A stretch of DNA of 64,000 nucleotides from Herpetosiphon gulosus (lineage in GTDB: Bacteria > Chloroflexota > Chloroflexia > Chloroflexales > Herpetosiphonaceae), in assembly GCF_039545135.1 (NCBI RefSeq), contig NZ_BAABRU010000004.1:130427-194426 (forward strand), written 5' to 3'. The position numbers were made by a program, and so were the translations under genes. Of the stretch, positions 13,912 to 45,101 are shown piece after piece (position 1 is the first letter of the stretch; each line of letters starts with the position of its first letter). The notes under the pieces were generated by a model. It saw nothing but the letters and a program-made list of their open reading frames with translations. It had not been told where the DNA came from and did not search any database.

Positions 13912-14015
13912 ACTCCCTCACCCCAACCCCTCTCCCACGGCGGCGGGAGAGGGGCTTTTGGTTTGGTGGTTCCCCCTCGCTCGCGTGCAGGCTAGGGGGC
14001 TAGGGGGTGAGGGCA
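13912..14015. repeat. Family A palindromic repeat (single unit)
   Basis: ccctcaccccaacccctctcccacggcggcgggagaggggc ... gctagggggctagggggtgaggg. Confidence 0.85.
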
Positions 14016-27000: not shown

Positions 27001-28227
27001 ATGGCGCTTGACCAGCCAACGGTTGCCTTAATTGTCGGAATTGGCTTGTTGCTCCAAGCATTGGTAATTGGGGCTTTTTTAGTTTTTGTTCGGCGTTATC
27101 AAGGGATTCGCTGCTTTTTAATTGGCACGATTGGTTTAGGTTTGGGCTTTTTAGCCTTAGCTTTATTGCCCCAAACCTCATTAGCAGCAATCACAAGTAG
27201 TTATATTTTGATACTCAGTGGCTTGTTTGGGCTAAGCAGTGGGATTTTACGCTTCATCGGGGCTACCAGTTCAGCCAAAATTTATGCGATCTGTTGGCTA
27301 ATCGTTGCTGGAATGCTCAGTCTGTGTGCTTGGTGGTTTGCCGATCCAGGCTTAATTATCAATTTGGCGATGCTGCTTGGTAGCGCAGGCATGGCCTATA
27401 CTGCGCTCCAAGTATTTTTTCAGCGCACCATCCCCTATCAAAGTGCCAGTCGTTTGTTGGCTTTGGCCTTGACCCTCAAAATTGCAATTATCTTTTTGGG
27501 CTTGGCCTATTTTTGGTATAGCCAGCGCTGGCCGAGCCTGACGACCTTGAAACTAGGCTATAGCGTGCTGATTTTGCTGCTTTCGCTGCTGTGGACTGGC
27601 GGCTTTGCGGTAATGATTACCCAGCGCATGCAATGTGATTTATCGGCCTTGGCCAGCATTGATGTCTTAACGGGCATTGCCAATCGCCGCGCAATCAACG
27701 AATATTTAGAGCAGGCGATTGCCAAATGGCGACGCAACCAGCAGGGTTTTGCGGTAATCATGCTCGATATTGATTGTTTTAAACAGATTAATGATCGTTA
27801 TGGTCACCACGCTGGCGATTCCGTGTTGCGCCATATTGCCTTGGTGCTGAGCGAACAAGTGCGAATTAACGATCTAATTGGGCGCTGGGGAGGCGAAGAG
27901 TTTCTTTTGATTGTTGATGCCGATACGATCCAGCAAGCAACCTTGATGGCTGAACGCTTACGTCAAGCTATTCAGCAACAACCAACCGTCTGGGATGATC
28001 ACGTGATTCAGCATACAGTCAGCATTGGGATTGCGCTCTGTGGAACGCATGGCTTCAACGAAGCCCAATTACTGACTGCTGCCGATTTAGCGCTTTACGA
28101 GGCCAAGGAAACTGGTAAAAATCGCTGGATTGTCTATGAGCGCCGTTTGTTGAACCAGCTTGATCCAGCGCTAGAACTGGCCAACGAAGGGCTTATTTTC
28201 GATGTTGATTCATCGATTTATGCCTAA
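27001..28227 (+). CDS. Diguanylate cyclase (GGDEF) with N-terminal 6-7 TM sensor region
   Basis: GGEEF active site (RWGGEEFLLIV) and RxxD-like I-site context. Membrane N-terminal half. Confidence 0.85.
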   Translation: MALDQPTVALIVGIGLLLQALVIGAFLVFVRRYQGIRCFLIGTIGLGLGFLALALLPQTSLAAITSSYILILSGLFGLSSGILRFIGATSSAKIYAICWLIVAGMLSLCAWWFADPGLIINLAMLLGSAGMAYTALQVFFQRTIPYQSASRLLALALTLKIAIIFLGLAYFWYSQRWPSLTTLKLGYSVLILLLSLLWTGGFAVMITQRMQCDLSALASIDVLTGIANRRAINEYLEQAIAKWRRNQQGFAVIMLDIDCFKQINDRYGHHAGDSVLRHIALVLSEQVRINDLIGRWGGEEFLLIVDADTIQQATLMAERLRQAIQQQPTVWDDHVIQHTVSIGIALCGTHGFNEAQLLTAADLALYEAKETGKNRWIVYERRLLNQLDPALELANEGLIFDVDSSIYA

Positions 28228-29417
28228 TGCGCTGGTTGAGCTTGCGGTTCAGCGCTAGGCAAACCAACGGCAATCAACGCTCCTGCCACAACTAACACGC
28301 TGCCCATCAGGTAGGGCGAAGCTTCGCCAACGTTGGAAAGCATCCAAGTGGCATACAACGGGGCAAAAATCCGGGCCAAACTGCTCATCGATTGATACAA
28401 GCCCATATTCTCGCCCCGCTCGCTAGCTGGTGAATTGCGGCTGACCAACGACGAAAGCGATGGCGTGAGCAAACCTTCGCCAACTGCCAGCACAATACAA
28501 ATTGCCACCAAATGCCAAACATTTTGAATAAAGCCCAGGCCTGCCAATGAAAGTGCTAGCAGCAACGAGCCTGAGACAATCAGGGTTGCTTCACCAAACC
28601 GCGCCGCCAAGCGCCGAATTAAGCCGCCTTGCACAATCGCCACTACAATCCCAACCCCAGCCAAGGTATAGCCAGTTTGATGCGAGCCAAACTCCAAACG
28701 CCGCGCTGCAAACAAGGCAAAGGTGGTTTCAAAGGCCACAAATGCCAAGTTAATCAACAAGGTAATGCTGAGCAAACGGCCAACATTCGGCTTGCGAACT
28801 GCGGCCAAGAGTTTCATGAGATTAAAAGTACGGCCTTGTTGGGGGGCATGGCGCTCTGGCTCAGGCAACATCACAATCGTTAAAATTAAACTCAGCACTG
28901 CAATCCCCGCTGCCACAAAAATTGGCAACTGATAATTGCCATCTTTGCTGAGCAATGCGCCAATTGCTGGCCCAGCGATAAAGCCTAAGCCAAGTGCCGC
29001 CCCAACCATGCCCATGCCACGAGCACGATCTTTATCGGTGGTAATATCACTAACATAGGCTTGGGCAATCGAGATATTGCCGCCAGTTGCGCCATCGAAC
29101 ATGCGCCCGACAAACAGCCAAATCAGGCTATTAGCAAAACCAAACAGCAACAAGCTACAAACTGTGCCAATCAAACTTAAAATCAACAGCGGGCGACGAC
29201 CATAGCGGTCGGATAATTGGCCAAGAATCGGGGCAAAAATAAATTGCATCAAGGCATAACTACCGACAATCATGCCAACCTGAACCTCGGAAGCCCCAAA
29301 CTCCTGCGCATAAAACGGCGTGATCGGAATCACCACACCATAGCTCATGGTTCCAACAAACGCGATCAAAAAAATGGTCAAAAGTGGAGAGCGTTTCATA
29401 GGCGAGTCTATAGCCAA
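28224..29417 (-). CDS. MFS transporter
   Basis: 12-TM protein with MFS motif A (GQLSDRYGRRPLL). Confidence 0.85.
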   Translation of the reverse strand: MAIDSPMKRSPLLTIFLIAFVGTMSYGVVIPITPFYAQEFGASEVQVGMIVGSYALMQFIFAPILGQLSDRYGRRPLLILSLIGTVCSLLLFGFANSLIWLFVGRMFDGATGGNISIAQAYVSDITTDKDRARGMGMVGAALGLGFIAGPAIGALLSKDGNYQLPIFVAAGIAVLSLILTIVMLPEPERHAPQQGRTFNLMKLLAAVRKPNVGRLLSITLLINLAFVAFETTFALFAARRLEFGSHQTGYTLAGVGIVVAIVQGGLIRRLAARFGEATLIVSGSLLLALSLAGLGFIQNVWHLVAICIVLAVGEGLLTPSLSSLVSRNSPASERGENMGLYQSMSSLARIFAPLYATWMLSNVGEASPYLMGSVLVVAGALIAVGLPSAEPQAQPAH

Positions 29418-29443
29418 GCGGCTACTGGCTCCTTATCACTAGA

Positions 29444-30592
29444 TTAACCGTTGCCATTACGGCGAGCGGCGAGAACATCTTCAACCGCCAGCGAACAACC
29501 GCGCAATTCTGCGCCGCTGGCTCGACCAAGCACCTCAAACCCATCAGCTACAACCACGCCTAAATCTTCGGTTTGCAATGCGAGTACCGAGTAGAGATTA
29601 GCCAAATCAAGGTGGCGTAACAGTCCAGTTTGGCCAGCAGGCAATGGTGCAAAGGTGGTTGGATCGACGATCTGGGTGCGAACCCAGGGCACAATCACCT
29701 TATGGCGTGGTTGCCATTCGCGGAGGTAGGCCGAGTGCAACGAGCAATCGTAAAATTGGCTGCCCAGTTCGGTCATACCATATTCGTTGACACACATAGT
29801 CGATGGAATCCCCAAAACTTCGCTGTAGAGCGCATAGAGATCGTTGCGGGCAATTTCGCGCACTTTGCCTTTGGAGCCGCCGGTATCCATCAAACGGCTA
29901 CCTTTGGGCAATTGCCAACGCTTGCCATGCTCGGCGCACCAATCCAAAAAATAGACGAAGGTATACATCACGCCCATCAAGCAAACCGGAGTATTCTTGG
30001 CCACTGCTGCATCAAGCGATTCGGCGAGGCTGGCTGAATCTAGGCCTGCTGCACTAAACACATAGCGGCTTTCAGCTGTGCCATGCTGCTCCACTGCATC
30101 GCTGATCATATGTGCTAGCGACGACTGTGGTAGCTCATTGGGATGCCAAAAAAGCACATAGATTGGCAGGCGTTTAGCATCGGGAAACAGATGATAGGCT
30201 AAATTTGGCCGTAACGACGCTTCATACAACGAGCGATCGCGAATATAGTGCGTGCCCCGTTGTTCACTGCCTTGGGTCGTACCGCTGGTGCGATAGATCG
30301 CCTGGGCTTCTTCGGGCGGAAAGGTGGTTAAGGGCAGATGTTTGAAGGCCGTGGTTGGCACTGCCGGAATCTCCGACCAATGCTTTACCCGCTCAGGGCT
30401 GAGCATCCGCCGTTCGCAATAGCGCTGATACACCACATTATGCTGCCATTGATAGCGAAACGTGCGCAAGGCTAAATCATTAAACAAACTATCGTCATCG
30501 GGGTCAATCGGGCGAACACCCGCTTGCATCAAAGCCCGAATTTCAAAATCGAGCGTTTCAATTTCGTTCATTTCCAACCTCAGGTGAGCCAA
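29444..30592 (-). CDS. LuxE-family acyl-protein synthetase (AMP-forming)
   Basis: IPAVPTTAFKH...RTSGTTQGSEQRG aligns with LuxE IPVFPTSVFKF...TSSGTNGLKSQ, from my recall of the Vibrio LuxE sequence. 382 aa. Confidence 0.7.
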   Translation of the reverse strand: MAHLRLEMNEIETLDFEIRALMQAGVRPIDPDDDSLFNDLALRTFRYQWQHNVVYQRYCERRMLSPERVKHWSEIPAVPTTAFKHLPLTTFPPEEAQAIYRTSGTTQGSEQRGTHYIRDRSLYEASLRPNLAYHLFPDAKRLPIYVLFWHPNELPQSSLAHMISDAVEQHGTAESRYVFSAAGLDSASLAESLDAAVAKNTPVCLMGVMYTFVYFLDWCAEHGKRWQLPKGSRLMDTGGSKGKVREIARNDLYALYSEVLGIPSTMCVNEYGMTELGSQFYDCSLHSAYLREWQPRHKVIVPWVRTQIVDPTTFAPLPAGQTGLLRHLDLANLYSVLALQTEDLGVVVADGFEVLGRASGAELRGCSLAVEDVLAARRNGNG

Positions 30593-32791: not shown

Positions 32792-33259
32792 ATGGCCCAA
32801 TATCTGTATGGTGATCGCATCGCTGCCCAAGGCCGCTTGATGCTTGGTTGCTCAGCAACCTTATTCGATGCCACGCGCAGTAAGCTTTTATTAACCCGCC
32901 GCACCGATAACGGGCGCTGGTGTTTGCCTGGTGGAGCAGTCGATGCTGGCGAATCGGTCAGCGAAGCCTGCGTTCGCGAGGTTTTTGAGGAAACTGGGCT
33001 GACGGTGCAGGTTGTGCGCTTGCTGGGCATTTATAGCAATCCACATCGCATGGTGCGCTACGCTGATGGCAATCAATATCATGTGATTAGCATGAATTTT
33101 GAGGTGGCCTTGATTGGTGGTGAGCTAGGATTAAGCAACGAAACCACCGAAGTCGGCTATTTCAGCCAAGCCGAAATTGATACAATGGATCTGATCGATC
33201 CGCACCGTGAGCGGATGGCGGCGATTTGGAGCAATGATTCCATTCCAACAATTGCTTGA
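32792..33259 (+). CDS. NUDIX hydrolase
   Basis: Nudix box GGAVDAGESVSEACVREVFEETGL. aggagtgaacc SD. Confidence 0.88.
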   Translation: MAQYLYGDRIAAQGRLMLGCSATLFDATRSKLLLTRRTDNGRWCLPGGAVDAGESVSEACVREVFEETGLTVQVVRLLGIYSNPHRMVRYADGNQYHVISMNFEVALIGGELGLSNETTEVGYFSQAEIDTMDLIDPHRERMAAIWSNDSIPTIA

Positions 33260-33265
33260 TGAAAG

Positions 33266-33300
33266 TGCCCCGCAGCTTTGCAATAGGCTACGGGGCACTT
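33266..33300. terminator. Bidirectional terminator hairpin between convergent nudix and pfpI
   Basis: agtgccccg-cagctttgcaataggcta-cggggcact. A second small hairpin acaggtt-atcaacc-aacctgt follows. Confidence 0.5.
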
Positions 33301-33317
33301 CTTCCTGATACAGGTTA

Positions 33318-33887
33318 TCAACCAACCTGTTTATGTAAACCTTCGCCTAATTCTTCAATAAATTTGCGATTGAAGGCCGGAATATCTTGGGGATTGCGGC
33401 TGGTCACTAGGCCATTATCGACCACGACCTCGCGATCAACCCACTCGGCTCCCGCATTTTTCAGGTCGTTTTGTAAGGTTGGGTACGATGTGAGCATACG
33501 GCCTTTGGCAATTCCAGCATCGATCAGCGTCCAAGGGCCATGGCAAATGGCAGCAATTGGTTTGCCAGCCTCGGCCATCGCTCGTACAAAATTCAAAACG
33601 CTGGTTTCGCGCCGCAGTTTATCGGGGTTCATTACGCCGCCAGGCAACAACAACCCATCATAATCAGCAGGGTTGACTTGCTCAAGCGTATAATCAACGG
33701 CAATCTCGCTGCCCCAATCTTGCTCTTTCCAGCCGCGAATCGTGCCAGCCTTGAGCGAAATGACATGGGTTTTGGCTCCGGCTTGCTCTAAGGCTGCTTT
33801 TGGTTCTTCAAGCTCGCTTTGCTCAAAGCCATGAGTTGCAATAATCGCCACTCGTTTGCCCTTTAAATGATGACTCATACTTCGCAT
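33318..33887 (-). CDS. DJ-1/PfpI family protein (class I glutamine amidotransferase-like; deglycase or protease)
   Basis: KRVAIIATHGFEQSEL, then the nucleophile elbow IAAICHGPWTL. Confidence 0.85.
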   Translation of the reverse strand: MRSMSHHLKGKRVAIIATHGFEQSELEEPKAALEQAGAKTHVISLKAGTIRGWKEQDWGSEIAVDYTLEQVNPADYDGLLLPGGVMNPDKLRRETSVLNFVRAMAEAGKPIAAICHGPWTLIDAGIAKGRMLTSYPTLQNDLKNAGAEWVDREVVVDNGLVTSRNPQDIPAFNRKFIEELGEGLHKQVG

Positions 33888-33989
33888 ACCTCCTGTTACA
33901 CCACTATTCTATGCCTAGGTTAAGGCAAGATTCAGGCCACAGCCGATATGCCTGCGCCTCAATCACCCATGATCGAGGCGCATAGTTGG

Positions 33990-35348
33990 TTATTTATCAG
34001 GCGCTGCTGGCACGCTGCTTGGTGGTTGCGAACGGAAAAAGCGCGAGGCGGCAAGCAATACTTTGGGTGTAAACAAGCTCGCGGCTGAGCCGATCATATG
34101 AATCGCGCCAACCATGGCGTTGGTAGCAGCATGATTGCCTGCCGCCGCCATATTTACCTTATCGCTATACCATTGCAGCACGCGAATCGGCAAAATTGGG
34201 CGATAGGTCGGCGTATCAGCCAGTCGTGAATCTTCGCTGATGGTGGTAAGCCAGCCCGCTTTGTTGCGGCGAGCCAAGGCTTTTTGGAAGCTCAAGGCCC
34301 ATGGTGCGCTGCCTATGCCCTCACGTTGCAGATGCTTGGCTAAAACCTGAACGCTCATGGCAGTATTAGTAATACCTTGGCCATAAATTGGATTCAAGGC
34401 ACACACGCTATCAGCAATCGCAATGAGGCCAGCGGGCATGACTGGCAATTGTTCGTAATGCACCCAACGATTTTCGGTTTTGGCATAACCATAGACTTGG
34501 CTGGCAGGCGTAAATTTCTGGGTAATTTCAGCAATCAAGGGCGTGCGCATCCGTGCCAACCAAGCCTCAAACTCGGTACTATCGGTTGGCGGGCGTTGGC
34601 TGCCAACTCCGCCAATCGTCAAGAGCCATTGGTCGTTTTCAACCTTAAGAAAAGTTGCGCCATGGCGAATATGCGGCGGCATCGGCATCACAAAGATCGC
34701 TGGCCAGCCTTGCCAATCGGCAGGAGCGGTGTACATTCTGGTGGCATAGCCCACATCTGATTTGTAAATGGTCTCTTTGACTCGCCCAAATTGATGTTGT
34801 TCCAGCCATTCTGGCAGCTTGGATGGACGACCAGCCGCATCGACAACCAAGTTGGCATTAAGTTCATGCTGCTCACCAGTATCACGATTGCGCAACTTGA
34901 CCCCGACAACTTGTCGCCCGTGAAAGAGCAAATCAGTCACTTCTTGGCGCGTTTGGATTTCAATATTGGGAATTTGGCGAATGCGCCCAAGAATCGCTGC
35001 ATCGAACAAGGGGCGGGTGGCGATGATGCTGCGATAATCCGAGGGTCGTGGTTCGGCCCAGCCTGCCGCAAATAAATAACGACAATCGTTCATCAGATCA
35101 AGCTCGTTGCCGCCAAGCGCCTTCATATCTTCGCGAATGTTGGGAAACAGTTTTTCTAATTCGAGTAAACCGCGCATCAGCAACAAGTGCAATTGGCGAC
35201 CTTGCGGCACGCCCGCCCGAAATTGCACCCCATCGGGCAGCGTATCACGCTCCAAAATCGTCACTTTAGCATAAACGTCACTCAACACACGGGCACTCAA
35301 TAAGCCACCGATGCTGGCTCCGATCACAATCGCATGGTCTCGTCTCAT
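33990..35348 (-). CDS. FAD-dependent monooxygenase-like protein, paralog 1
   Basis: DHAIVIGASIGGL dinucleotide-binding motif followed by ...ILERD. A GD-type second FAD motif (IADSVCALNPIYGQGITN) and a 100-aa C-terminal extension. 452 aa. Confidence 0.7.
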   Translation of the reverse strand: MRRDHAIVIGASIGGLLSARVLSDVYAKVTILERDTLPDGVQFRAGVPQGRQLHLLLMRGLLELEKLFPNIREDMKALGGNELDLMNDCRYLFAAGWAEPRPSDYRSIIATRPLFDAAILGRIRQIPNIEIQTRQEVTDLLFHGRQVVGVKLRNRDTGEQHELNANLVVDAAGRPSKLPEWLEQHQFGRVKETIYKSDVGYATRMYTAPADWQGWPAIFVMPMPPHIRHGATFLKVENDQWLLTIGGVGSQRPPTDSTEFEAWLARMRTPLIAEITQKFTPASQVYGYAKTENRWVHYEQLPVMPAGLIAIADSVCALNPIYGQGITNTAMSVQVLAKHLQREGIGSAPWALSFQKALARRNKAGWLTTISEDSRLADTPTYRPILPIRVLQWYSDKVNMAAAGNHAATNAMVGAIHMIGSAASLFTPKVLLAASRFFRSQPPSSVPAAPDK

Positions 35349-35422
35349 AGTACACCTCCCAAATCTGAAATGTACTCCTGCATATTCTAGTAGTATAGCA
35401 GGGCTGGATTCAGTTGCCTATG

Positions 35423-36784
35423 CTATACGTTGACCTGCAAGGGCAAGTTTGGCACTGCATCGGAATATTTAGGCCGAATTTTGCTCAGCAGCACGGGAAT
35501 AAACACCCGTGGATGAAATAGCGCATTTGGATTGCCGATCATATGAATTGTTTTGATAAACTCGCTAAAAACCACGTTACTATTCAAACTGGCCTGATTA
35601 ATTTGATCAAAATAGGGTGCGATTAGTTTACTCAACAACGGGCGTTTGAACGATGAATCGTAACGCGAATCTTCACCACTCGCCATTTCCCAAGGGAATT
35701 GGTTGTTCTTGGCTAAAACTTGTTGAAAACGCTGACCCCAGGCTGCTGAGCCACGATCTTGCTGTTTGAGCTGGTTACCTAGCAAGATTGCGCCTAGGGT
35801 GGCAGTGCTAATCCCCTGCCCATAAACCGGATTAAAGGCACAAACCGCATCGCCCAAGGCAATTATTCCTGCTGGCAGGTGCATGCGCTCGTAGTGGCGT
35901 TGGCGATTTTCGGTACGCCCATAGCCACTGGTTGGGCTAAGCGGCTGCGATTTACTCAACAGATCGGCCAAAATTGGCGAGGGCAATTCGCGCAGCCATT
36001 GCATAAAACCATCTTCATCGGTTGGTGGCTTGGCCTGATTGACCCCGCCGCCAGTCACAATCCAGCGATTGCCCTCAACTTCGAGCAAAATCGCGCCTTT
36101 GGGAACGGTCGGCGGCTGTTGCATCACAAACAGGCCTTTCCATTCATTCCAGCCTTCGGGCTTAGCATAGAGCCGCGACGTATAGCCAAGTTTGGCATCG
36201 AGCACGGTTTCGCTTACCTTGCCACAACCAAGTTCAGCCAGCCATTCTGCCAATTTGGAATTGCGCCCACTGGCATCGACAACCAAATCGGCATGCAAAC
36301 TCTGTTCGCTGCCATCTTGGCGATTGCGCACCTGCACCCCTTGAATATGGCGACTATTGCCGATCAGATTGAGGGCATCGTGTTGGGCCAAAAACTGAAT
36401 CTTAAGGTTTTGCAATAAGCGCCGCCGAATTGCCCAATCAAACAAAGGGCGAGTTGCCGAGAGCGTTTTCAATTCGGTTGGCTGGGGCACTGTCCAGCCA
36501 TTTTTGAGGTAATAGCGACAATCGTTGATCATATCCACTGATTGTGCCCCAAGATCTTGCAGTTCTTGGTTGATGCCTGGAAAAAGCGTTTCCAGCTCGC
36601 GTGCACCACGAATCAGTAGCAAATGCACATGGCGACCTTGCGGCACACCCGCCCGAAAATCACCAGCCTCGGGCAAGCTATCGCGTTCGAGCACACTAAC
36701 TCGGCCATAATGTTGGCTCAACATGTGGGCGGTAATCAGGCCGCTAATACTGGCTCCAATCACAATTGCATGATCTTGCAGCAT
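35423..36784 (-). CDS. FAD-dependent monooxygenase-like protein, paralog 2
   Basis: MLQDHAIVIGASISGL... It is collinear with paralogs 1 and 3 over the full length. Confidence 0.7.
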   Translation of the reverse strand: MLQDHAIVIGASISGLITAHMLSQHYGRVSVLERDSLPEAGDFRAGVPQGRHVHLLLIRGARELETLFPGINQELQDLGAQSVDMINDCRYYLKNGWTVPQPTELKTLSATRPLFDWAIRRRLLQNLKIQFLAQHDALNLIGNSRHIQGVQVRNRQDGSEQSLHADLVVDASGRNSKLAEWLAELGCGKVSETVLDAKLGYTSRLYAKPEGWNEWKGLFVMQQPPTVPKGAILLEVEGNRWIVTGGGVNQAKPPTDEDGFMQWLRELPSPILADLLSKSQPLSPTSGYGRTENRQRHYERMHLPAGIIALGDAVCAFNPVYGQGISTATLGAILLGNQLKQQDRGSAAWGQRFQQVLAKNNQFPWEMASGEDSRYDSSFKRPLLSKLIAPYFDQINQASLNSNVVFSEFIKTIHMIGNPNALFHPRVFIPVLLSKIRPKYSDAVPNLPLQVNV

Positions 36785-36786
36785 AG

Positions 36787-38175
36787 TTAAGCTCCTTGGC
36801 TAGCGCTGAGAATGGTCGGGATCGCGGGCGTTGGGTTGGGAGTTGCTGATTGTAAGCGCCCTTTGAGCACATTCCAGATCATCGCTGGGTGCAGTAAGCC
36901 ACTGGGATTACCAGTCATATGCACAATCGGCGTGAAGCGGTTGAGCACGATTGGATTATTGCTTGATGCCAGATTGATTTGATCAAAATAATTGCGCAGC
37001 AGGGTCGCCCCAAACGAACGCTTGACGCTGGTGTTATAGCGGGCATCTTCGCCCACCGCGATGCCCCAAGGAAATTGATTGCTCTTGGCGAGCGCTTGTT
37101 GGAAGCGCTGACCCCAGGCTGCCGAGGCCCGATCTTGTTCTTTTAAATGCTGGCTCAGCAAAATCGCGCCCAAGGTGGCGTTGCTAATACCTTGCCCATA
37201 AATTGGATTAAAGGCACAAACCGCATCACCAAGCGCGACCACTCCCGCAGGCAGGCTAAGTTGCTCATAATGGCGTTGGCGATTTTCGGTGCGGCCAAAA
37301 CCAACCAAGGGGCTAATTGGCTGGGCCTTGCTCAGTAATTCATACAAAATCGGCGAACACAATAGTTTGAGCCAATTTAGCCATTCGGCCTCATCAAGTG
37401 GTGGCTTGGCCTCGTTGAATCCACCACAGGTCACCATCCAGCGATTGCCCTCGATCTCAGTTAAAATCGCGCCACGTGGATTAACCAATGGTCGTTGGCG
37501 CACAAATAAGCCCTTCCATTCGTTCCAGCCTTCGGGTTTGGCATAGAGCCGTGAGCAATAGCCCACATTCGAGGCAATCACGGTTTCGGGCACTGCTTGG
37601 CAACCGAGCGCTTGCAGCCATTGAGCAAGTTTAGATGAACGCCCACTGCAATCGACCACAAGTTCGGCCAAAAATTGGTGTTCAACTTCGGTATCGCGGC
37701 GTTTGGTATTGATACCCCGCACATGACGCAAATCCCCAACCAAGCCAAGCACATCGGTTTGGGTTTCGAGCCGAATCTTGGGGTTTTGACGTAAACGCTG
37801 CAACAACACCCAATCGTAGAGCGGGCGGCTAGCCGAGATTGTGCGATGGGTTGATTGATGCGGTTTGGCCCAACCACCAGCCATCAAATAGCGATAATCA
37901 TTCATCAAATCGACCGACTGTGCGCCGTGGGCCACGAGTTCCTGTCCAATGCCAGGGAAAAGCATTTCAAGCTCACGCGCCCCACGCATCAACAGCAGAT
38001 GCAGGTGACGAGCTTGCGGCAAACCAGCCCGCACATCGATCGAGTCGGGCAAACTATCACGTTCGATAATCGTTACTTGGGCAAAATAGTGGCTGAGGAT
38101 GTGTGCGGTCACTAAACCGCTAATGCTTGCGCCAATAACCAGCGCATGATCGTGACCCATCATAGCTCCTTCCAA
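36787..38175 (-). CDS. FAD-dependent monooxygenase-like protein, paralog 3
   Basis: MGHDHALVIGASISGL... The start is probably 38160-38163. It is separated from paralog 2 by 2 nt. Confidence 0.7.
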   Translation of the reverse strand: MEGAMMGHDHALVIGASISGLVTAHILSHYFAQVTIIERDSLPDSIDVRAGLPQARHLHLLLMRGARELEMLFPGIGQELVAHGAQSVDLMNDYRYLMAGGWAKPHQSTHRTISASRPLYDWVLLQRLRQNPKIRLETQTDVLGLVGDLRHVRGINTKRRDTEVEHQFLAELVVDCSGRSSKLAQWLQALGCQAVPETVIASNVGYCSRLYAKPEGWNEWKGLFVRQRPLVNPRGAILTEIEGNRWMVTCGGFNEAKPPLDEAEWLNWLKLLCSPILYELLSKAQPISPLVGFGRTENRQRHYEQLSLPAGVVALGDAVCAFNPIYGQGISNATLGAILLSQHLKEQDRASAAWGQRFQQALAKSNQFPWGIAVGEDARYNTSVKRSFGATLLRNYFDQINLASSNNPIVLNRFTPIVHMTGNPSGLLHPAMIWNVLKGRLQSATPNPTPAIPTILSASQGA

Positions 38176-38363
38176 GGCAAGTGGAATTCAACGCACACAA
38201 CAATTCTGGCTACTAACGTTTGATTCTCTAGCAAACGTAGCAGGTTGAAGCATGCTGCTGTGGTTGATGGAGCAATTGATGGGTGGATTGATGTGGGTAT
38301 GTTTGACTCCATGCAGCAGCCAAAAATTTGATTGCTGCATCTTAGCATAATTCAGGGTTTTTG

Positions 38364-39485
38364 CTAGCGTGGTTGCCAAAATGGGCGATCAGGCCAGCGC
38401 TGTTCTTGGGCATAAATCTGCTGGCGAAGCTGGCGATAAGCTTGCCAAGCCTGCTCAATCTGATGTCCATAGCCATGCAGCGCGGCAATTGAGCCTTGGT
38501 TGGCAGCGATTAAACATTGAGCGGCATCGCGGGCGCTGGTTAATCCCACCGTAATTCCATGGGCCGCCAGCGGATCATAGCTCATGGCCGCGTCGCCGAT
38601 CGCCAGCCAACCATTGCCATAGCAGCGATCTAAGCGGCTACTGCTAGCATCGACCCAATACGGTTGGGCACAAAGCTGGTGTTGATCGAGCCATTGTTTG
38701 GCCCAAGTGCTACATTTGAGGGCTTGCCACCAACCCTCGGCATGAACAAGCTTTTGGCGTTGGGTGGCAGTTGGGTGACCAATAAAAATGCTGGCCATTT
38801 GAGCTTGCGGCACTCGCGCCACATACCACCAACCATCAGCTACCGCCTCGACCAAGCTCCGCTGATCGGGCCATGGCTGAGCTTGCGGCTCCAGCATCGC
38901 CACCAAACCAAGCTGTTTGGGGCCATCAATCTGGGTTTGTATTCCCAATCGCCGCGCTAGCCAACGTGCTCGGCCAGTCGCCTCAATCAGCCAGCGCGTT
39001 TGAAATAATTGCTCGCCAACCCCCATAATCCAGCGCTCAGACTGACGTTCGAGGTAGCTAATTGACACTGAACTGAATGTTACGCCCAATCCAAGGCCGC
39101 GCTGGCGGAGCTGCTGCTCAAAGTGCGGTCGATTGAGATGCCAGCCATGGCCATAGGGCGTTGCCAAAAAATCATGATGATAGAGCGCATCTGATCCCCA
39201 AGCTGCTAGATTGCCCGGGCAAATCGAATGCTCCCGATCAAGATCTAGACCCAGCTCGTGCACCAACGGGCGAGCGGCAGGCGCTAAACTTTCGCCAAAG
39301 CACTGTGGCCGCGTAGGCGGGCGTTCGAGTACAACCACCTGCAACCCATGCCGTGCGAGATGCACGGCACAGGCGCAGCCAGCGATGCCGCCGCCAACGA
39401 TCAAACAATCAATCGTTATTGGCTTCGGCGGCATTTTTGCGTCCTCGCTTGAGGCGTTGTTGTGGCCAATTGAGGTCGCTATCAA
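38364..39485 (-). CDS. lodB: LodB-like FAD-dependent flavoprotein (CTQ cofactor biogenesis partner)
   Basis: ITIDCLIVGGGIAGCACAVHLARHGLQVVVLER Rossmann motif, with a likely start MPPKP at 39434. It is about 370 aa, located immediately 3' of and overlapping lodA, as in Marinomonas lodAB and goxAB. Confidence 0.7.
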   Translation of the reverse strand: MIATSIGHNNASSEDAKMPPKPITIDCLIVGGGIAGCACAVHLARHGLQVVVLERPPTRPQCFGESLAPAARPLVHELGLDLDREHSICPGNLAAWGSDALYHHDFLATPYGHGWHLNRPHFEQQLRQRGLGLGVTFSSVSISYLERQSERWIMGVGEQLFQTRWLIEATGRARWLARRLGIQTQIDGPKQLGLVAMLEPQAQPWPDQRSLVEAVADGWWYVARVPQAQMASIFIGHPTATQRQKLVHAEGWWQALKCSTWAKQWLDQHQLCAQPYWVDASSSRLDRCYGNGWLAIGDAAMSYDPLAAHGITVGLTSARDAAQCLIAANQGSIAALHGYGHQIEQAWQAYRQLRQQIYAQEQRWPDRPFWQPR

Positions 39486-41352
39486 CCAGATCGGTATCTG
39501 GCTCGGCGGCTAGACTACGGGTTAATTGGGGAGCCTCGGTTTCAACCTTGCGACCTGTTTCAACCCAGAGCGTTTGTGGAAAACTGGCGCTATGTTCAGG
39601 CCCAGTTTGGGCGATGATAATGCCCACGGTATCCCATTCGTTGGTAAATTTAGTAATTGCCGGCACGGTTGGAATATGGCCTGGTGGAATGCTCTCAGTG
39701 TAGACCATCCCGCGCAGCCACTTGCGGCGGGTAGTCGGCGCGAAGGCTTGGGCACGCTCTTCAGGCGTAGCATCAGGGTTCATAATAATCTGGTAGCTCT
39801 CTTGGCTAAGCACATCGTTGGGCACACGAGCAGGCCAAAAAGTGGGCAAATAGGTTCCGGCATAGCCCATATAGGCTGAGAGACAGCTTGAAGTATCGGT
39901 TTGCCAAGGCACGGCCATCCAACGGGTGATCGCCCCAGCATCGCTGGCATACAACATCCCATTGGGAGCTAAGGCAGTAGCCGCATCAAGCGTATCGCCC
40001 CAATCTGGCTCAGGGCTGGTGCGACGTTTGAGCCGAAATGGCGCTACATACATCGAAGCATGACGTAACGGCCAAGTGAATTCGCAGCCGGGGTGAAACG
40101 GGCCGCCCAAGGTTGCATCAAGCGCTGCCCGCGTGAGATTGTAGGCCTGTTCAGCCGGATCAAGCTGCTCCCACGACCTGACCACGGGCAAACCATCGGC
40201 AATAAAATCGCCATTGGCCCATTGCTCGAGCCAACGATATTGGCTTGGCAGAATTGCTTGCCACTCCTGCGGATCGGTGGTTTTGGTGTTGAGCGTAATC
40301 GCATCGCCATAAAACAATGGCAGGCCTTCGGGATCGATATAGGGATTACTGGGACTGCGCATTTGAGCTAAAACAGCTTGGCGCAATGGTTCGCTAGCAG
40401 CACTAGGATCGCCCAAGTGGGCGATCAACTCGGGATTATTGAAATCACTGGGGCTGCCCCAACCAAAACTACGGGCAAACCCAGCGTTAACCCATTGCAA
40501 CTGACTAAAGCGTGAGAGCAGGGGATAAATTTCGCTGCTAAAACGTGGCTTGGCTGGTGCAAGCGTCGGATCAAGCTGCATCGCCACTTCAAATAGCAAA
40601 TCGTAGCCTGTCATAATCGAATTTGTGCCTGGGGCATAATCAGGTGGCGCAACAATCACCCAAGCATGAGTTGCCTGTAAAACGCGGCCATCACTCAATT
40701 TGACCACGGCCTCAATCGGGCCATCGGCAGTATCGTCGTGCCAATCATCGTTATCGGCAAAGGTGGTTAAGGGCTTACCATGGGCTGAAGCTGAGTGACC
40801 ACGTCCGCCCAGCACAATCAAATTGCCCTGTTCATCGGTGCGCAATTCGCCCAAATAAACTTGCTTGCCAAAGAATGTGCCCTGATCAAAGGCATAGATC
40901 GCCTCTGCTCCCTGAGGGTTGACATTTAGGCCACAAATACTGCGTGTGCCACCGTCGATTGTCAATTGATCGCGCTTGGTTACATCAGCATTGCGGCGCT
41001 TGCTGACAATTTTGCCATCGGCCGAGGCCGGAATATCCAGCGCTTGGATAAATTCGTACCACGCGGCTTTTTGATTGGCGAGCTGCGCCGTCCAGACAAT
41101 TTCTTGCAGATCAGGATTGGTTTGGTTTAACTCGCAAATCACCTCACCTGCGGAATTCAAGCCATAAACCCGAAACCGCGCCGCTTGGCGTTTGATCGCG
41201 CCACTAGGATCGCGAAACAAGTCGGGGTCAACTTGAGGCGCACCCAACACTTCGGGGCCATAAAAAAATTCATTTGGGCTATTTCCGACGCGAGCAAAGC
41301 CAACCGGAGGATAAATCGCAACGCTGACAATCTCAGCACAAGCCATAATCAA
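39409..41352 (-). CDS. lodA: LodA/GoxA-family quinoprotein amino-acid oxidase (cysteine tryptophylquinone, H2O2-generating)
   Basis: Multiple blocks match LodA of Marinomonas mediterranea as I recall it: VAIYPPVGFARVGNS (LodA VHPSIGVARLGNA), VWTAQLANQKAAWYEF (LodA WTVHLANKKAAWYEF), GNLIVLGGRG (LodA GRLIVLGGYG) and AVPWQTDTSSC (LodA ACPWQADFFNC, which has the CTQ Trp). A candidate CTQ Cys lies in HPGCEFTW. 647 aa. Confidence 0.85.
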   Translation of the reverse strand: MIMACAEIVSVAIYPPVGFARVGNSPNEFFYGPEVLGAPQVDPDLFRDPSGAIKRQAARFRVYGLNSAGEVICELNQTNPDLQEIVWTAQLANQKAAWYEFIQALDIPASADGKIVSKRRNADVTKRDQLTIDGGTRSICGLNVNPQGAEAIYAFDQGTFFGKQVYLGELRTDEQGNLIVLGGRGHSASAHGKPLTTFADNDDWHDDTADGPIEAVVKLSDGRVLQATHAWVIVAPPDYAPGTNSIMTGYDLLFEVAMQLDPTLAPAKPRFSSEIYPLLSRFSQLQWVNAGFARSFGWGSPSDFNNPELIAHLGDPSAASEPLRQAVLAQMRSPSNPYIDPEGLPLFYGDAITLNTKTTDPQEWQAILPSQYRWLEQWANGDFIADGLPVVRSWEQLDPAEQAYNLTRAALDATLGGPFHPGCEFTWPLRHASMYVAPFRLKRRTSPEPDWGDTLDAATALAPNGMLYASDAGAITRWMAVPWQTDTSSCLSAYMGYAGTYLPTFWPARVPNDVLSQESYQIIMNPDATPEERAQAFAPTTRRKWLRGMVYTESIPPGHIPTVPAITKFTNEWDTVGIIIAQTGPEHSASFPQTLWVETGRKVETEAPQLTRSLAAEPDTDLVDSDLNWPQQRLKRGRKNAAEANND

Positions 41353-41388
41353 ATCTCCTTAATAAACCATTCAAACATTTTTTAAAGG

Positions 41389-42402
41389 CTAAGTTAAATC
41401 GTGACGAGGTTGGCGTGGCTCCACAAGCGGAATGCCATTACGTTGGCGGCGCAACTCTGCCGAAGCTTGATAGACCACTTTGCGAGCTTCACTAATACTG
41501 CCGACTGGAGCGTGTTCGGGCAGTGCATGCCATGGGTTGAAGGCCAGATTTTCAACGTAAGCGGCTTGACCAGGCGCATCAATATCTTGTTGGGGCAGGG
41601 TTAGGGTTGCCACATGCAGCGGCGGCGCTAGCTCGGTTGACCATTCGACGGTTGCAGCATCCAACGGCATCAGCTTAGGATTGGTGCGCAGTTGAATGCT
41701 AAAGTGCAGATCAATCGGGCCGGCCAACAAGCGACTATGCAGATCATCGTGCAAAAAGTTGGGGTTGAGCTGTGGGTTGCTCGGCGGTTGCGGATTGAGC
41801 GATTCAAGCGCCAAGTGATATTTGACGTAACGGCCTTGACCAAAAGCATAGGGCAGACCGCTCCAATAAACTGCATCGAAGACACTAGCCAAATTTTGCT
41901 GCATCAGATCAAGAATTTTGCGGGTTTTGGGGTGTTTGGCGAGATAGGCATCATAGCCATCACCTACCAAGCCTTCGTAGGTAAATTCGCACATATCCTT
42001 GGCGGTATCGACAAAAAAGACTGGATAATTTTGCAAGACCAAATCGTGAGTTAATGCATCTTCTTCACCAGTTAATAATTTACGACCGTGTACCCCAAAT
42101 AGCTTGATCCCTACACCCAAGGTTGTGCCAAGATCGCTGGCAAACGGCACGGTATCGCTGGAAAAGCGCAGCCAAGCCGCAAGCTGATCGTAAGCCAACA
42201 AGCCAACTCGTAGCTCGGCTGGCAAATCGGGGCGAACCCACCAAGTCGCTTTGGCCCCACCGTGCGGCTTAAGAAACACCGCCCGTCGAACCGGATCTTG
42301 TCCGGCGTTAATCCGCGTGCCCATAGTTTTGTTGACAAATAGCTGGCGTAGTTGGGTGATGGGATCAGCACATGGACAATCGTGAGCATGATCTGAACTC
42401 AT
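41389..42402 (-). CDS. Small catalase-related haem protein (mini-catalase or peroxidase-like)
   Basis: 337 aa. The C-terminal SEARKVVYQASAELRR fits the catalase proximal ligand motif R-x3-Y-x2-S-x3-R. RRAVFLKPHGGAKA resembles the distal RVVHAKGxGA region. Confidence 0.45.
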   Translation of the reverse strand: MSSDHAHDCPCADPITQLRQLFVNKTMGTRINAGQDPVRRAVFLKPHGGAKATWWVRPDLPAELRVGLLAYDQLAAWLRFSSDTVPFASDLGTTLGVGIKLFGVHGRKLLTGEEDALTHDLVLQNYPVFFVDTAKDMCEFTYEGLVGDGYDAYLAKHPKTRKILDLMQQNLASVFDAVYWSGLPYAFGQGRYVKYHLALESLNPQPPSNPQLNPNFLHDDLHSRLLAGPIDLHFSIQLRTNPKLMPLDAATVEWSTELAPPLHVATLTLPQQDIDAPGQAAYVENLAFNPWHALPEHAPVGSISEARKVVYQASAELRRQRNGIPLVEPRQPRHDLT

Positions 42403-42456
42403 ACAAGCTCCTCATTGCAGCGTGATCGATGAGGGCAGCCAATTTTAAGAATATTC

Positions 42457-42560
42457 CCTCACCCCCACCCCTCTCCCACTGCGGCGGGAGAAGGACAACT
42501 GGCGGGATAGTTCCCCCTCGCCTCGCTTGCGGGAGCGGGGCCAGGGAGTGAGGGATGGAG
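42457..42560. repeat. Family A palindromic repeat (degenerate unit)
   Basis: tccctcacccccacccctctcccactgcggcgggagaagg ... gggagcggggccagggagtgaggg. Confidence 0.8.
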
Positions 42561-42612
42561 ATTATTGTCAATCCAATAAACTATTTCGCCTAGCAATTGA
42601 CTGCTTAGTTAA

Positions 42613-43509
42613 TTAACGTAAGAAGGGCTGGTTAATTAGACTATTTGGACACTCAAGTTGGGGAATTTGTTGAAACTTGTTGTCGTAGAGGCTGCGGCGC
42701 AGTTGTTCGCCCAGGTTGGCATAGCTAATTTGGGGATTTTCGCTGAGGATATTTTTCAAAAAGAAGGTCATTGCACCATGGTAGGTTCCGCCAAAATTGG
42801 CATCGGCGGCAACTTGCTCGGCCTTACAAGCAGAAATCAAAACCGTATTTTCGTGCTGTGGGCGTTGACCAAAGCTCTGTTTTTGCAACGAACTGACTAA
42901 ATCGCCTGCAAACTTGGCAATTTCGGTTGGGTCGGCGCTCCGTTGTTGCAGATCAAGAATTTGCTGCGCCACACTATCAACCTGTTGCTGTTGATAGGCC
43001 TGCTTTTTGGCACGAATTTCGTCAAAAACTGCTTTGGCGGGAGTTAAGGTGCGATACCGAATATCGGCAAATGGATCTTTGCTGATCGTGCCCGAATGAC
43101 AACAATCCATCAATAAAATCAGCCGCGTTGTGCCCAAAAAACCTTGGTACAGCTCAGCCAAATGGTCATCGGTAAGCAGGCCAGCGCTAGGATAATCGAT
43201 CGGAGCAAGACATTCATCAGCACCATCGGGTTCATCACCATTTTGATCAGGCTGCTGCACCCCATGGCCAGCATAATGAAAAATCCGAATTTCCGGCTGA
43301 CCATCGTTGAGCGGTTCGGCGAGCCAGCGCAAATTATCGATAATCGCTTGGCGCGTAGCAGCAGCATCGGTGATCAAACGCAGCTGATCATCGGCAGCAG
43401 CATGCTGGGCTTTAAACAACTCACGAACTGCACTTACATCGTTAACACAGCCCTTGAGTGGCCGCTCGCTATAACTATTGATTCCCACAAATAAGCCACG
43501 AATACCCAT
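42613..43509 (-). CDS. Caspase-like peptidase C14 domain protein (standalone)
   Basis: p20-like fold markers GINSYSERPLKGCVNDV, His dyad context HYAGHGVQ, and catalytic Cys context LLMDCCHSG. 298 aa, with no fused effector domain. Confidence 0.8.
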   Translation of the reverse strand: MGIRGLFVGINSYSERPLKGCVNDVSAVRELFKAQHAAADDQLRLITDAAATRQAIIDNLRWLAEPLNDGQPEIRIFHYAGHGVQQPDQNGDEPDGADECLAPIDYPSAGLLTDDHLAELYQGFLGTTRLILLMDCCHSGTISKDPFADIRYRTLTPAKAVFDEIRAKKQAYQQQQVDSVAQQILDLQQRSADPTEIAKFAGDLVSSLQKQSFGQRPQHENTVLISACKAEQVAADANFGGTYHGAMTFFLKNILSENPQISYANLGEQLRRSLYDNKFQQIPQLECPNSLINQPFLR

Positions 43510-43701
43510 AGTGCAAACTCCTCAGCGCTAATTTTTTTGGGATGATTGCAGCGTGGCTATACAGTAGTAGAGCGTTATAGCCCTGTCAAGAGCAAAACCA
43601 GCGCATGCAAAACCAGCATAATCAGGTACAATAGGCGCAGATGGGGGCAAAGAACTAGTTGTTCTTTGCTCCCCTTTTGCGAACAATGGAGGACAAACGG
43701 C

Positions 43702-44597: not shown

Positions 44598-45101
44598 TCA
44601 ATCGTCATCATCAAGCGGGCGTTCTGGCGACAAGCTATCAACAAATGCTTGGAATGAAGGGCTACAATACGACACATTGTAATACAGATCGCCCTCATCT
44701 TCGGACTCTAGCTCAAATTCATGATCCCAAAAATAGACCTTGCCTCGCTGCTCACCACGAATTCCCAAGCAAATCACATTACCACCAGGATCGCAAGCAA
44801 TTGGCAGAAGTTCAAGTGGAATTCGTGTTTCATACGCGGTGTATGTTCTAATCGTATCTCGAATTTCATAGTATTCTGAGGCTGGATCAAGGGTAAGAAA
44901 GAAGTGGATCATACTTTCATCATCAGGCAACAATAAGGGGCTTCCGGTTTTGAAAACGGTTAGCTCAGGTTGGCCACCATTATGTTCAAGCAAAAATGAC
45001 CGATAATCTTCTGGCAATCGACAGCCCAACTCTTGCTCAAAAGCCGCCACTTCGGCCTCATTAGTTGGAGTAAAGCCATCAACAATTGTTATGTTCATCA
45101 C
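44598..45101 (-). CDS. SMI1/KNR4 (SUKH-1) family immunity-type protein
   Basis: The N-terminus EAEVAAFEQELGCRLPEDYRSFLLEHNGG is the canonical SUKH-1 motif. 167 aa with an acidic C-terminus. Confidence 0.75.
   Translation of the reverse strand: MMNITIVDGFTPTNEAEVAAFEQELGCRLPEDYRSFLLEHNGGQPELTVFKTGSPLLLPDDESMIHFFLTLDPASEYYEIRDTIRTYTAYETRIPLELLPIACDPGGNVICLGIRGEQRGKVYFWDHEFELESEDEGDLYYNVSYCSPSFQAFVDSLSPERPLDDDD

Follow-up and report, generated by a model that had tools for sequence, protein, structure and literature searches.

A predicted group III LodA/GoxA-family oxidase and a catalase-family partner encoded by a three-gene cassette of Herpetosiphon gulosus

Closest described systems

As of a 2025 review, LodA and GoxA are the only characterized members of the LodA/GoxA family. 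LodA is the L-lysine epsilon-oxidase, or marinocine, of Marinomonas mediterranea (PDB 2ymw/3weu), and GoxA is the cysteine tryptophylquinone (CTQ)-dependent glycine oxidase of Pseudoalteromonas luteoviolacea (PDB 6byw/6eer). In the survey by Campillo-Brocal et al. 2015 (PMC4417212), LodA is placed in the antimicrobial group IA and GoxA in group II, and fusions with a catalase domain (pfam00199 / cd08152 y4iL-like) are all confined to group III. Group III is large, spread over many phyla, and without a characterized member. A related architecture is known from corals, where the N-terminal catalase-related domain of AOS-LOX consumes the peroxide from the fused C-terminal oxygenase (PMC5617202; PDB 3dy5).

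In the window analyzed here, a 64-kb stretch of the genome of Herpetosiphon gulosus, three genes on the minus strand constitute a cassette in the order catalase-family haem protein gene, lodA-like gene and lodB-like gene. A first-pass annotation had reported the latter two as a lodA/lodB-type CTQ oxidase pair in a Chloroflexi-type genome, possibly of a predatory or filamentous gliding bacterium. The pair was confirmed through Pfam, NCBIfam and RefSeq identity, and Herpetosiphon gulosus is indeed a predatory, filamentous and gliding host.

GoxA is the best solved relative of the oxidase, with the e-value 4e-49 for the single sequence and 9e-87 for the profile. The two proteins have in common the WQxDxxxC motif and a downstream Trp, F316 and H583 of GoxA are Phe and His in the oxidase as well (F198 and H420 in the numbering of the 647-aa maximal ORF), and a flavoprotein maturase gene lies directly downstream in both systems. 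They differ in length (816 aa vs 645 aa), the N-terminal insertions of GoxA are missing from the oxidase, the identity is only ~22% over the fold alignment, and GoxA is not accompanied by a catalase partner. With LodA, the oxidase shares both Pfam domains, the D512...C516 motif when aligned by coordinates, and the lodA-lodB operon layout. Unlike both, the oxidase appears to belong to group III as delimited in the 2015 survey, and to the same subfamily as the catalase fusions. In the available part of the survey only fusions are described. In H. gulosus, the catalase-family domain has a gene to itself, which ends in a stop codon ahead of a ribosome-binding site and the lodA start.

The oxidase and its flavoprotein

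The oxidase gene is at 39409..41346 and the flavoprotein gene at 38364..39434, both on the minus strand. The maximal ORFs, 39409..41352 (647 aa) and 38364..39485 (373 aa), overlap as the first-pass annotation had given them. The starts are likely to be the ATG codons preceded by Shine-Dalgarno sequences rather than the ends of the maximal ORFs: AAGGAG is followed after 8 nt by the ATG at 41346, giving a 645-aa product, and GAGGA is followed after 7 nt by the ATG at 39434, giving a 356-aa product. These are the lengths of the database proteins, and also of Haur_00883 and Haur_00884 in the 2015 catalogue. With the ATG starts, lodB overlaps the 3' end of lodA by 26 nt, versus 77 nt for the maximal ORFs. 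Residues below are numbered on the 645-aa product unless the 647-aa numbering is indicated.

The Pfam domains LodA_N (PF17990; e-value 2.2e-76, 257 bits, cut-off 26.3) and LodA_C (PF18417; e-value 3.3e-36, 124.7 bits, cut-off 25) were both recognized in the oxidase, far beyond chance. The sequence blocks that had been quoted as LodA-like are present, ARVGNS at 20-25, LANQKAAWYEF at 91-101, LIVLGG at 178-183, HPGCEFTW at 420-427, VPWQTD at 481-486 and DTSSC at 486-490 (647-aa numbering), except that the first reads FARVGNS and not VARVGNS. The AlphaFold2 model (pLDDT 73) matches the fold of GoxA with a TM-score of 0.69 and that of LodA with 0.58, at e-values from about 1e-30 to 5e-33. The protein is 100% identical to WP_345721170.1 of Herpetosiphon gulosus, named "LodA/GoxA family CTQ-dependent oxidase" in RefSeq. 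It scores 434 bits against the NCBIfam GoxA equivalog NF038173 (cut-off 750) and 202 bits against the LodA equivalog NF038172 (cut-off 600; residues 11-496 aligned). By these cut-offs, it is neither LodA nor GoxA.

The ortholog in H. aurantiacus, ABX03475 (Haur_00883, 645 aa), is 97.5% identical to the oxidase. In the 2015 survey (PMC4417212), Haur_00883 is catalogued as an uncharacterized group III LodA-like protein and Haur_00884 as its 356-aa LodB, and a protein from Lewinella cohaerens DSM 23179, 48% identical to the oxidase, is likewise in group III. The placement of the oxidase in group III is based on the identity to these catalogued proteins and on the catalase fusions of its relatives. 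Because of this group assignment, as opposed to group IA for LodA, and of the low LodA equivalog score, the automatic UniProt name 'L-lysine 6-oxidase' is probably an over-annotation and is not justified; the substrate is probably neither lysine nor glycine. The phrase 'lysine oxidase' does not occur in any of the papers on Herpetosiphon that a literature search listed.

The oxidase retains the Cys, Trp and Asp residues of CTQ formation and function. The predicted CTQ pair is C488/W504 (C490/W506 in the 647-aa numbering) and the predicted catalytic Asp is D484 (D486), and the three residues are invariant across 25 relatives. The sequence WQTDTSSC aligns with WQSDAASC of GoxA, i.e., D678...C682, where the numbering of D678 follows the titles of mutant entries. 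Downstream, PTFWPARVPN, which includes W506 (647-aa numbering), aligns with PSWWAANLP of GoxA, whose second Trp, W697, is presumably the quinone residue. The oxidase Cys was placed at C516 of the LodA motif D512...C516 by coordinates, residue 518 of the LodA chain corresponding to profile position 494. The HMM alignment covers LodA up to two residues past C516 and leaves W581 outside, which is explained by ~50 extra residues of LodA between the Cys and W581. F316, H583 and D678 of GoxA map cleanly to the oxidase, the first two at F196 and H418, while the substrate-site positions Y766/H767 align unreliably, at a low posterior (3-5). At the positions of this Phe and His, LodA presumably has Tyr and Cys, consistent with the title of a GoxA H583C mutant entry. 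The AlphaFold2 model has pLDDT <50 at 414-426 and 478-506, i.e., around both CTQ residues. In PMC4417212, the aligned Cys and Trp are reported for every LodA-like protein detected, and the catalogue includes the H. aurantiacus ortholog.

Two other residues had been put forward as the CTQ pair, the Cys of HPGCEFTW and the Trp of AVPWQTD, and both were rejected. The former is not invariant; it is Val in the crystallized GoxA (HPGVELTW) and Ala in a relative. The latter is conserved but is not the predicted quinone Trp.

The lodB-like product scores 238 bits for GoxB, 192 for LodB and 153 for QhpG in NCBIfam, all under the equivalog cut-offs, including the curated 400-bit cut-offs of the maturase equivalogs NF038171 / NF038174. 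It has Pfam matches to Trp_halogenase and FAD-binding families, and a GGGIAG dinucleotide-binding motif at 30-35. Of 80 related loci, about 70 have a lodB homolog as the next gene downstream of lodA, and the rest mostly end at a contig edge. The product is a homolog of the maturases at the right genomic position but of a distinct subgroup, in keeping with its pairing to a group III oxidase, and it is presumed to be the usual FAD maturase of the LodA/GoxA family.

The catalase-family partner and the probable fate of the peroxide

The third gene, at 41389..42402 on the minus strand, lies outside the region covered by the first-pass annotation and encodes a 337-aa protein, named 'catalase family protein' in RefSeq. 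No Pfam or NCBIfam match was obtained at e-values ≤0.01, the gathering score of PF00199 was not reached, and only 2 of 120 listed homologs have a precomputed PF00199 match; this subgroup is too diverged for the Pfam model. Similarity was indicated to PDB 3e4w, with e-values of 8.5e-6 (single sequence) and 3.2e-11 (profile), and to the catalase 4qol (2.4e-7, profile). The AlphaFold2 model, built with database homologs, has a pLDDT of 91.8 and a pTM of 0.91. In Foldseek, its best matches were 3e4y/3e4w (e-value 4.2e-17 for 3e4y, TM-scores 0.68-0.75), followed by true catalases, with >40 chains matched, and by coral allene oxide synthase (AOS). The 33-kDa catalase-related protein MAP_2744c of M. 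avium paratuberculosis (3e4w/3e4y) and coral AOS (1u5u, 3dy5) have a compact catalase core of ~320-370 aa, lack the C-terminal extensions of true catalases as the 337-aa protein does, and share with it the residues of a Tyr-ligated haem, although the identity is only about 20%.

His47, Asn125, Arg307 and Tyr311 are all present in the 337-aa protein. In two alignments that share the window sequence, Tyr311 and Arg307 are found in all sequences, His47 in 50 of 53 rows and Asn125 in 49 of 53; Asn125 falls on the second Asn in the motif GNN-PIFF of catalases. The model and these residues indicate a compact catalase fold in which the haem-ligand Tyr/Arg pair and the distal His/Asn pair are both in place. 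Directly before the distal His, the homologs have a variable residue (P/Q/L/I/Y/C/V), where Val is typical of true catalases; in cAOS this position is T66.

A fused LodA-family protein of Brevibacillus, 948 aa long, matches the 337-aa protein with 56% identity over its first 334 residues (e-value 1e-118), and the identity to the fused catalase-family domains of LodA-like relatives is 44-59%. Among the 80 related loci, 21 have a catalase-family domain directly upstream of lodA, fused in-frame in 20 and separate in one. Stand-alone homologs were sampled from Rudanella, Chitinophaga, Moorena and one metagenome contig, and all four are 21-59 nt upstream of lodA-lodB. In H. gulosus, the spacer is 42 nt long (41347..41388, minus strand) and contains the lodA ribosome-binding site AAGGAG; its position corresponds to an in-frame linker of 10-16 aa in the fused relatives. 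This coupling, read from gene order and fusions, shows that a small catalase-fold subgroup is dedicated to group III LodA-like oxidases, and points to a peroxide-handling partner of the oxidase. Among the closest LodA relatives, as seen in the 80 loci, roughly three in four have no catalase partner, which indicates that the partner is dispensable for maturation and catalysis.

The LodB-like flavoprotein would hydroxylate W504, after which the C488-W504 quinone cross-link would form. The mature oxidase would use O2 to turn a primary amine or amino acid into an aldehyde or keto acid, with release of NH3 and H2O2, and the haem partner would consume this H2O2 at its source. Its simplest role would be that of a catalase shielding a cytoplasmic enzyme; alternatively, it may be a peroxidase that spends the H2O2. 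The logic is that of AOS-LOX, with the difference that the AOS-LOX partner is a lipoxygenase producing a fatty-acid hydroperoxide and the partner here is a predicted quinoprotein producing H2O2. On this reading, the cassette is probably a self-contained metabolic module, mobile between genomes by horizontal transfer, which keeps the peroxide that it makes contained and is not a secreted peroxide weapon.

Another reading, tentative and clearly the less probable one, is that the CTQ oxidase mainly feeds H2O2 to the Tyr-ligated haem partner, which would perform peroxidase or peroxygenase chemistry either on what the oxidase makes or on another substrate, as in AOS-LOX fusions or glucose-oxidase/peroxidase pairs. 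That the two are fused in 20 of 21 loci implies that they work in proximity, with channelling, and not in bulk detoxification; the nearest folds, the 33-kDa protein and allene oxide synthase, represent non-catalatic uses; and the residue before the distal His varies where true catalases typically have Val. Pakhomova et al. reportedly found in 2009 that the 3e4w protein is a better peroxidase than catalase, and detoxification is therefore not a secure role for its relative in H. gulosus. However, the residues that catalase chemistry requires, the distal His/Asn and the proximal Arg/Tyr, have all been kept, no conserved third gene offers a candidate co-substrate pathway, and most relatives function without the haem partner. 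The broader version of this reading, in which such relays, fused or split, operate across many phyla with a haem partner that is not a detoxifier, and could serve Herpetosiphon as a local oxidant generator for predation, is somewhat more doubtful still.

A marinocine-like oxidase released as a diffusible H2O2 weapon in predation, as proposed in the first-pass annotation, is unlikely. In its favour are the LodA and AlpP homologs of group IA, antimicrobial via H2O2 (PMC4417212), and Herpetosiphon being a 'wolf-pack' predator secreting antimicrobials (PMC6210107). LodA, amino acid oxidase and hydrogen peroxide all go unmentioned in the latter paper, which deals with the Herpetosiphon predation genome. 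The conserved domain begins at residue 14 of the oxidase and leaves no space for a signal peptide. A signal peptide is also missing from the characterized LodA, and Marinomonas LodA is nevertheless released; its absence is therefore compatible with an extracellular role. Clustering of the neighbours in the 80 loci revealed no secretion or immunity gene conserved near lodA, and the same cassette is present in many lineages that are not predatory, among them Streptomyces, Chitinophaga, Moorena and Kuenenia. The assignment to group III instead of IA, and the built-in peroxide-handling partner, whose gene is 42 nt upstream and which relatives have as a fusion with the oxidase, argue against a weapon.

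The cassette itself is already known, as its three genes all have names in RefSeq and the ortholog from Herpetosiphon was catalogued in 2015, and as a discovery it matters little. A compact three-gene cassette in a culturable organism would be a convenient entry to the substrate of group III, and it would allow asking whether the haem partner of the self-contained module protects from or exploits the peroxide.

Distribution and limits of the cassette

LodA-like enzymes had been described as rare outside Proteobacteria. In the 2015 survey (PMC4417212), LodA-like proteins are reported from 2 of 90 Chloroflexi genomes. Homology search revealed at least 2419 proteins matching the oxidase at e-values ≤1e-10, and at least 569 lodA-like loci in species-representative genomes; the loci are from Chloroflexota, Bacteroidota, Actinomycetota, Myxococcota, Planctomycetota, Cyanobacteria, Acidobacteriota and Firmicutes. 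The rarity is thus contradicted. When all ORFs up to 7 kb away from lodA were clustered across the 80 loci, nothing proved to be conserved beyond lodA and lodB, and the sole other neighbour cluster present in more than 6 of the 80 loci is an antisense-ORF artefact.

Downstream of lodB, three tandem paralogs of MonCI/Lsd18-like FAD epoxidases (33990..38175) and a DJ-1/PfpI gene could extend the cassette into one Herpetosiphon-specific pathway with the oxidase. All of these genes are on the same strand, the 188-nt spacer between lodB and the first FAD gene (38176..38363) has no convincing terminator, and the consecutive accessions ABX03474-ABX03478 imply the same order in H. aurantiacus. Against this, the three FAD paralogs, like a metacaspase gene on the other side, were rejected as cassette members, being absent within 10 kb of lodA in all 80 loci from other genomes, and the neighbour clustering gives them no place. 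The spacer folds into stable hairpins (z = -3.05), and the first FAD gene has its own AAGGAG site. Such an extension is accordingly improbable. Promoter and terminator scans over 33000-43700 gave fewer sites than shuffled sequence did, and no site fell at any of the relevant gene boundaries.

On the upstream side, a 210-nt spacer separates the metacaspase gene from the catalase-family gene. It includes a GC-rich hairpin of ~100 nt at 42420..42570 on the minus strand, which probably marks the upstream limit of the cassette. Its folding energy is -68.6 kcal/mol (z = -3.5), and 0 of 200 shuffles were equally stable. The hairpin is a REP-like repeated element, with five copies of its arm motif in the window versus 0 expected.

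[quoted passage not shown]

The maximal ORFs of the gene pair are 39409..41352 (-), with 647 aa, and 38364..39485 (-), with 373 aa; both reading frames of the first-pass annotation are recovered exactly in the ORF listing. The probable lodA start is the ATG at 41346, after AAGGAG with an 8-nt spacer, giving 645 aa, and the probable lodB start is the ATG at 39434, after GAGGA with a 7-nt spacer, giving 356 aa. From these starts the genes overlap by 26 nt, and 645 aa and 356 aa are the lengths of the database entries and of the Herpetosiphon aurantiacus genes in the published catalogue. A search with HMMs of the LodA N- and C-terminal families, proposed with the first-pass annotation, matched both in the larger protein (Pfam LodA_N, E = 2.2e-76; LodA_C, E = 3.3e-36), and thus a chance match to the LodA family is excluded. 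The sequence blocks quoted there are also present, with the first one reading FARVGNS, not VARVGNS.

Against the NCBIfam equivalog models, the oxidase reaches 434 bits for GoxA, where the cut-off is 750, and 202 bits for LodA, where it is 600; the flavoprotein reaches 238 bits for GoxB and 192 bits for LodB, both with a cut-off of 400. Both proteins are thus members of the family without being equivalogs. The scores are consistent with group III, a LodA-like subgroup of Campillo-Brocal et al. 2015 (PMC4417212). Among solved structures the best relative of the oxidase is GoxA, with E = 4e-49 for the single sequence and 9e-87 once a profile of 25 sequences is used; the corresponding values for LodA are 1e-37 and 1e-67. 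The AF2 model of the oxidase (pLDDT 73, pTM 0.79) superposes with TM 0.69 on GoxA and 0.58 on LodA.

The entry WP_345721170.1, 'LodA/GoxA family CTQ-dependent oxidase [Herpetosiphon gulosus]', matches the 645-aa oxidase at 100% identity; CTQ stands for cysteine tryptophylquinone. The neighbouring proteins exactly match H. gulosus entries named 'catalase family protein', 'FAD-dependent oxidoreductase' (LodB in UniProt) and 'FAD-dependent monooxygenase'. The ortholog from H. aurantiacus DSM 785, ABX03475, shows 97.5% identity to the oxidase, and Table S1 of the 2015 paper (PMC4417212) enters it in group III as Haur_00883 (645 aa) and gives Haur_00884 (356 aa) as its LodB-like partner. The first-pass recognition of a LodA/LodB-like pair is correct. 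It is not new: given the database names and the 2015 catalogue entry, the find is the recognition of a known item, already annotated and catalogued.

According to a 2025 review, the characterised CTQ enzymes are LodA, GoxA and QHNDH only. As reported in the 2015 paper (PMC4417212), a lod/gox double mutant of M. mediterranea lost both activities with its group III gene still there. This makes lysine and glycine improbable as substrates, and in calling the oxidase 'L-lysine 6-oxidase' UniProt probably over-annotates it. The automatic UniProt names, this one (202 vs 600 bits on LodA) and 'Epoxidase LasC' for an FAD paralog downstream, outrun the evidence.

LodA-family enzymes had been described as rare outside Proteobacteria, which is contradicted by their distribution. 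Protein search revealed at least 2419 homologs of the oxidase at E ≤ 1e-10, and a scan of species-representative genomes, using only two peptide patterns, revealed at least 569 confirmed lodA loci. The best 80 of these at least 569 loci include, within Chloroflexota, Caldilineales, Thermomicrobiales, Dehalococcoidia and Chloroflexia, and also Bacteroidota, Myxococcota, Actinomycetota, Planctomycetota, Verrucomicrobiota, Acidobacteriota, Cyanobacteria, Firmicutes and Proteobacteria. The 2015 survey (PMC4417212) had already recorded such genes in Chloroflexi, where 2 of 90 genomes had them, and in several further phyla of bacteria.

The CTQ residues

The Cys of HPGCEFTW (C423 in the 647-aa numbering) had been nominated as the CTQ Cys. 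It is ruled out by the alignment to GoxA, which has Val at this position (HPGVELTW), and by Ala in the relative P0039; the column is not invariant. The His of this motif corresponds to the active-site residue H583 of crystallised GoxA. The VPWQTDTSSC block pairs with IPWQSDAASC of GoxA, where numbering along the alignment makes the Asp D678 and the Cys C682; the D678 numbering fits the D678A/N/E mutants named in PDB titles. In LodA, the profile alignment stops at residue 518, profile position 494, so that the Cys falls on C516 and the Asp on D512. The quinone Trp aligns 16 residues past the Cys (PTFWPARVPN, vs PSWWAANLP in GoxA).

D484, C488 and W504 (645-aa numbering) are unvarying across 25 relatives with 48-97% identity. 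Thus the expected conservation of the CTQ Cys and Trp stands, while the putative CTQ residues are C488 and W504 instead of the nominated ones. The AF2 model is unreliable around the Cys and the Trp. The corrected set of putative CTQ residues, based on alignment, is a modest new point.

The catalase-fold partner and the role of the cassette

The catalase-family gene (41389..42402 (-), 337 aa) ends 42 nt ahead of the lodA start codon. Its protein has no match in Pfam or NCBIfam. Despite this, several lines, from homology search to structure prediction, show a catalase fold. The single sequence matches 3e4w, the 33-kDa M. avium paratuberculosis catalase-related protein (E = 8.5e-6). In a profile search the E-value for 3e4w improves to 3.2e-11, and a true catalase (2.4e-7) and the coral allene oxide synthase (AOS; 0.007) also match. 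The high-confidence AF2 model (pLDDT 91.8) has 3e4y/3e4w as best fold matches (E = 4e-17), with AOS and several dozen catalases behind them. His47 and Asn125 on the distal side, and Arg307 and Tyr311 on the proximal side, are all kept, and are conserved in alignments.

A LodA-family protein of 948 aa from Brevibacillus shows, over its first 334 residues, 56% identity to the 337-aa protein (E = 1e-118). Among the best 80 of at least 569 loci, a catalase domain lies directly upstream of lodA in 21, as an in-frame fusion in 20 and as a separate gene only in a Rubripirellula MAG. In the reverse direction, the matches listed for the 337-aa protein are mostly stand-alone proteins of ~335 aa, with 17 fused fragments. 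The genomic context of four stand-alone homologs (Rudanella lutea, Chitinophaga sp., Moorena sp. and one metagenome contig) is the same each time: 21-59 nt downstream comes a gene with LodA_N/LodA_C, and a lodB-like gene is next. Because fusion and upstream linkage are seen from both directions, this catalase-fold subgroup is dedicated to LodA-like oxidases. The passages of the 2015 paper (PMC4417212) on the catalase-domain/LodA arrangement describe it only as a fusion in group III, whereas the window carries the split form, with the domain in its own gene. A modest new point is that a cat-lodA-lodB cassette recurs, in split or fused form, within the uncharacterised group III.

In one Alphaproteobacteria MAG locus (L079:8984-9955), an in-frame stop codon interrupts the catalase-domain region, which was omitted from the alignment; it may be a sequencing error or mark a pseudogenised fusion.

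The family, the cofactor-forming residues, the maturase gene, the catalase-fold partner and its genetic linkage are established for the cassette. By analogy with LodA/GoxA biochemistry (PMC4417212; PMC11951088), LodB would hydroxylate W504, the C488-W504 quinone would then form, and the mature oxidase would convert an amine and O2 with release of H2O2. The fusion pattern suggests that the haem partner may use up this H2O2 at source, for which coral AOS-LOX is a precedent (PMC5617202). Between a peroxidase relay and simple protection of a cytoplasmic enzyme, the second is somewhat likelier. The secreted H2O2 weapon proposed earlier is unlikely and has no positive support here. The missing signal peptide leaves room for such a role, since Marinomonas LodA is without one too, but the cassette's own peroxide consumer, its placement in group III and the many non-predators carrying it speak against a weapon.

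Boundaries and surroundings of the cassette

Upstream, a 210-nt spacer parts the cassette from a stand-alone metacaspase gene (42613..43509 (-); Peptidase_C14, E = 8e-27; weak match to the 'caspase, EACC1-associated type' model). The spacer holds a REP-like GC-rich palindromic element (42420..42570) with a ~100-nt hairpin (dG -68.6 kcal/mol, z = -3.5). Its arm motif GGGAGAGGGGTKGGGGTGAGGG has five copies in the window (3968-3989, 6772-6793, 6836-6857, 13915-13936 and 42456-42477) against 0 expected, and an inverted pair of the element lies at 2423-2532. Downstream, a 188-nt structured spacer is followed by three tandem FAD monooxygenase paralogs (36787..38175, 35423..36784 and 33990..35348, spanning 33990..38175 (-)) with mutual identity of 43-59%. 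Neither these paralogs nor the metacaspase were found near lodA in any of the best 80 of at least 569 loci, and unbiased clustering of all neighbouring ORFs found only lodA and lodB conserved.

Among solved structures, the FAD paralogs best match two polyether epoxidases, MonCI and Lsd18/LasC (E about 1e-68); the window has no polyketide synthase and no further biosynthetic gene. The array is kept in H. aurantiacus. Directly downstream of it, a DJ-1/PfpI family protein is encoded (33318..33887 (-), E = 1e-54). This family includes glyoxalase/deglycase enzymes clearing reactive aldehydes, and thus the protein might conceivably be connected with an oxidase that produces aldehyde. Near the metacaspase gene lies a gene for a SUKH-1/SMI1-KNR4 protein (44598..45101 (-)), from a family that often serves as toxin immunity proteins; neither of the two has a link to lodA elsewhere. 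A LuxE-type acyl-protein synthetase homolog (28224..30592 (-), E = 3e-22) adjoins an MFS transporter; the scanned ORFs included no further lux genes. The remaining window is ordinary chromosome, with genes for fatty-acid synthesis, TatC, a two-component system, MoxR, glycerol kinase, GGDEF and glycosyltransferases.
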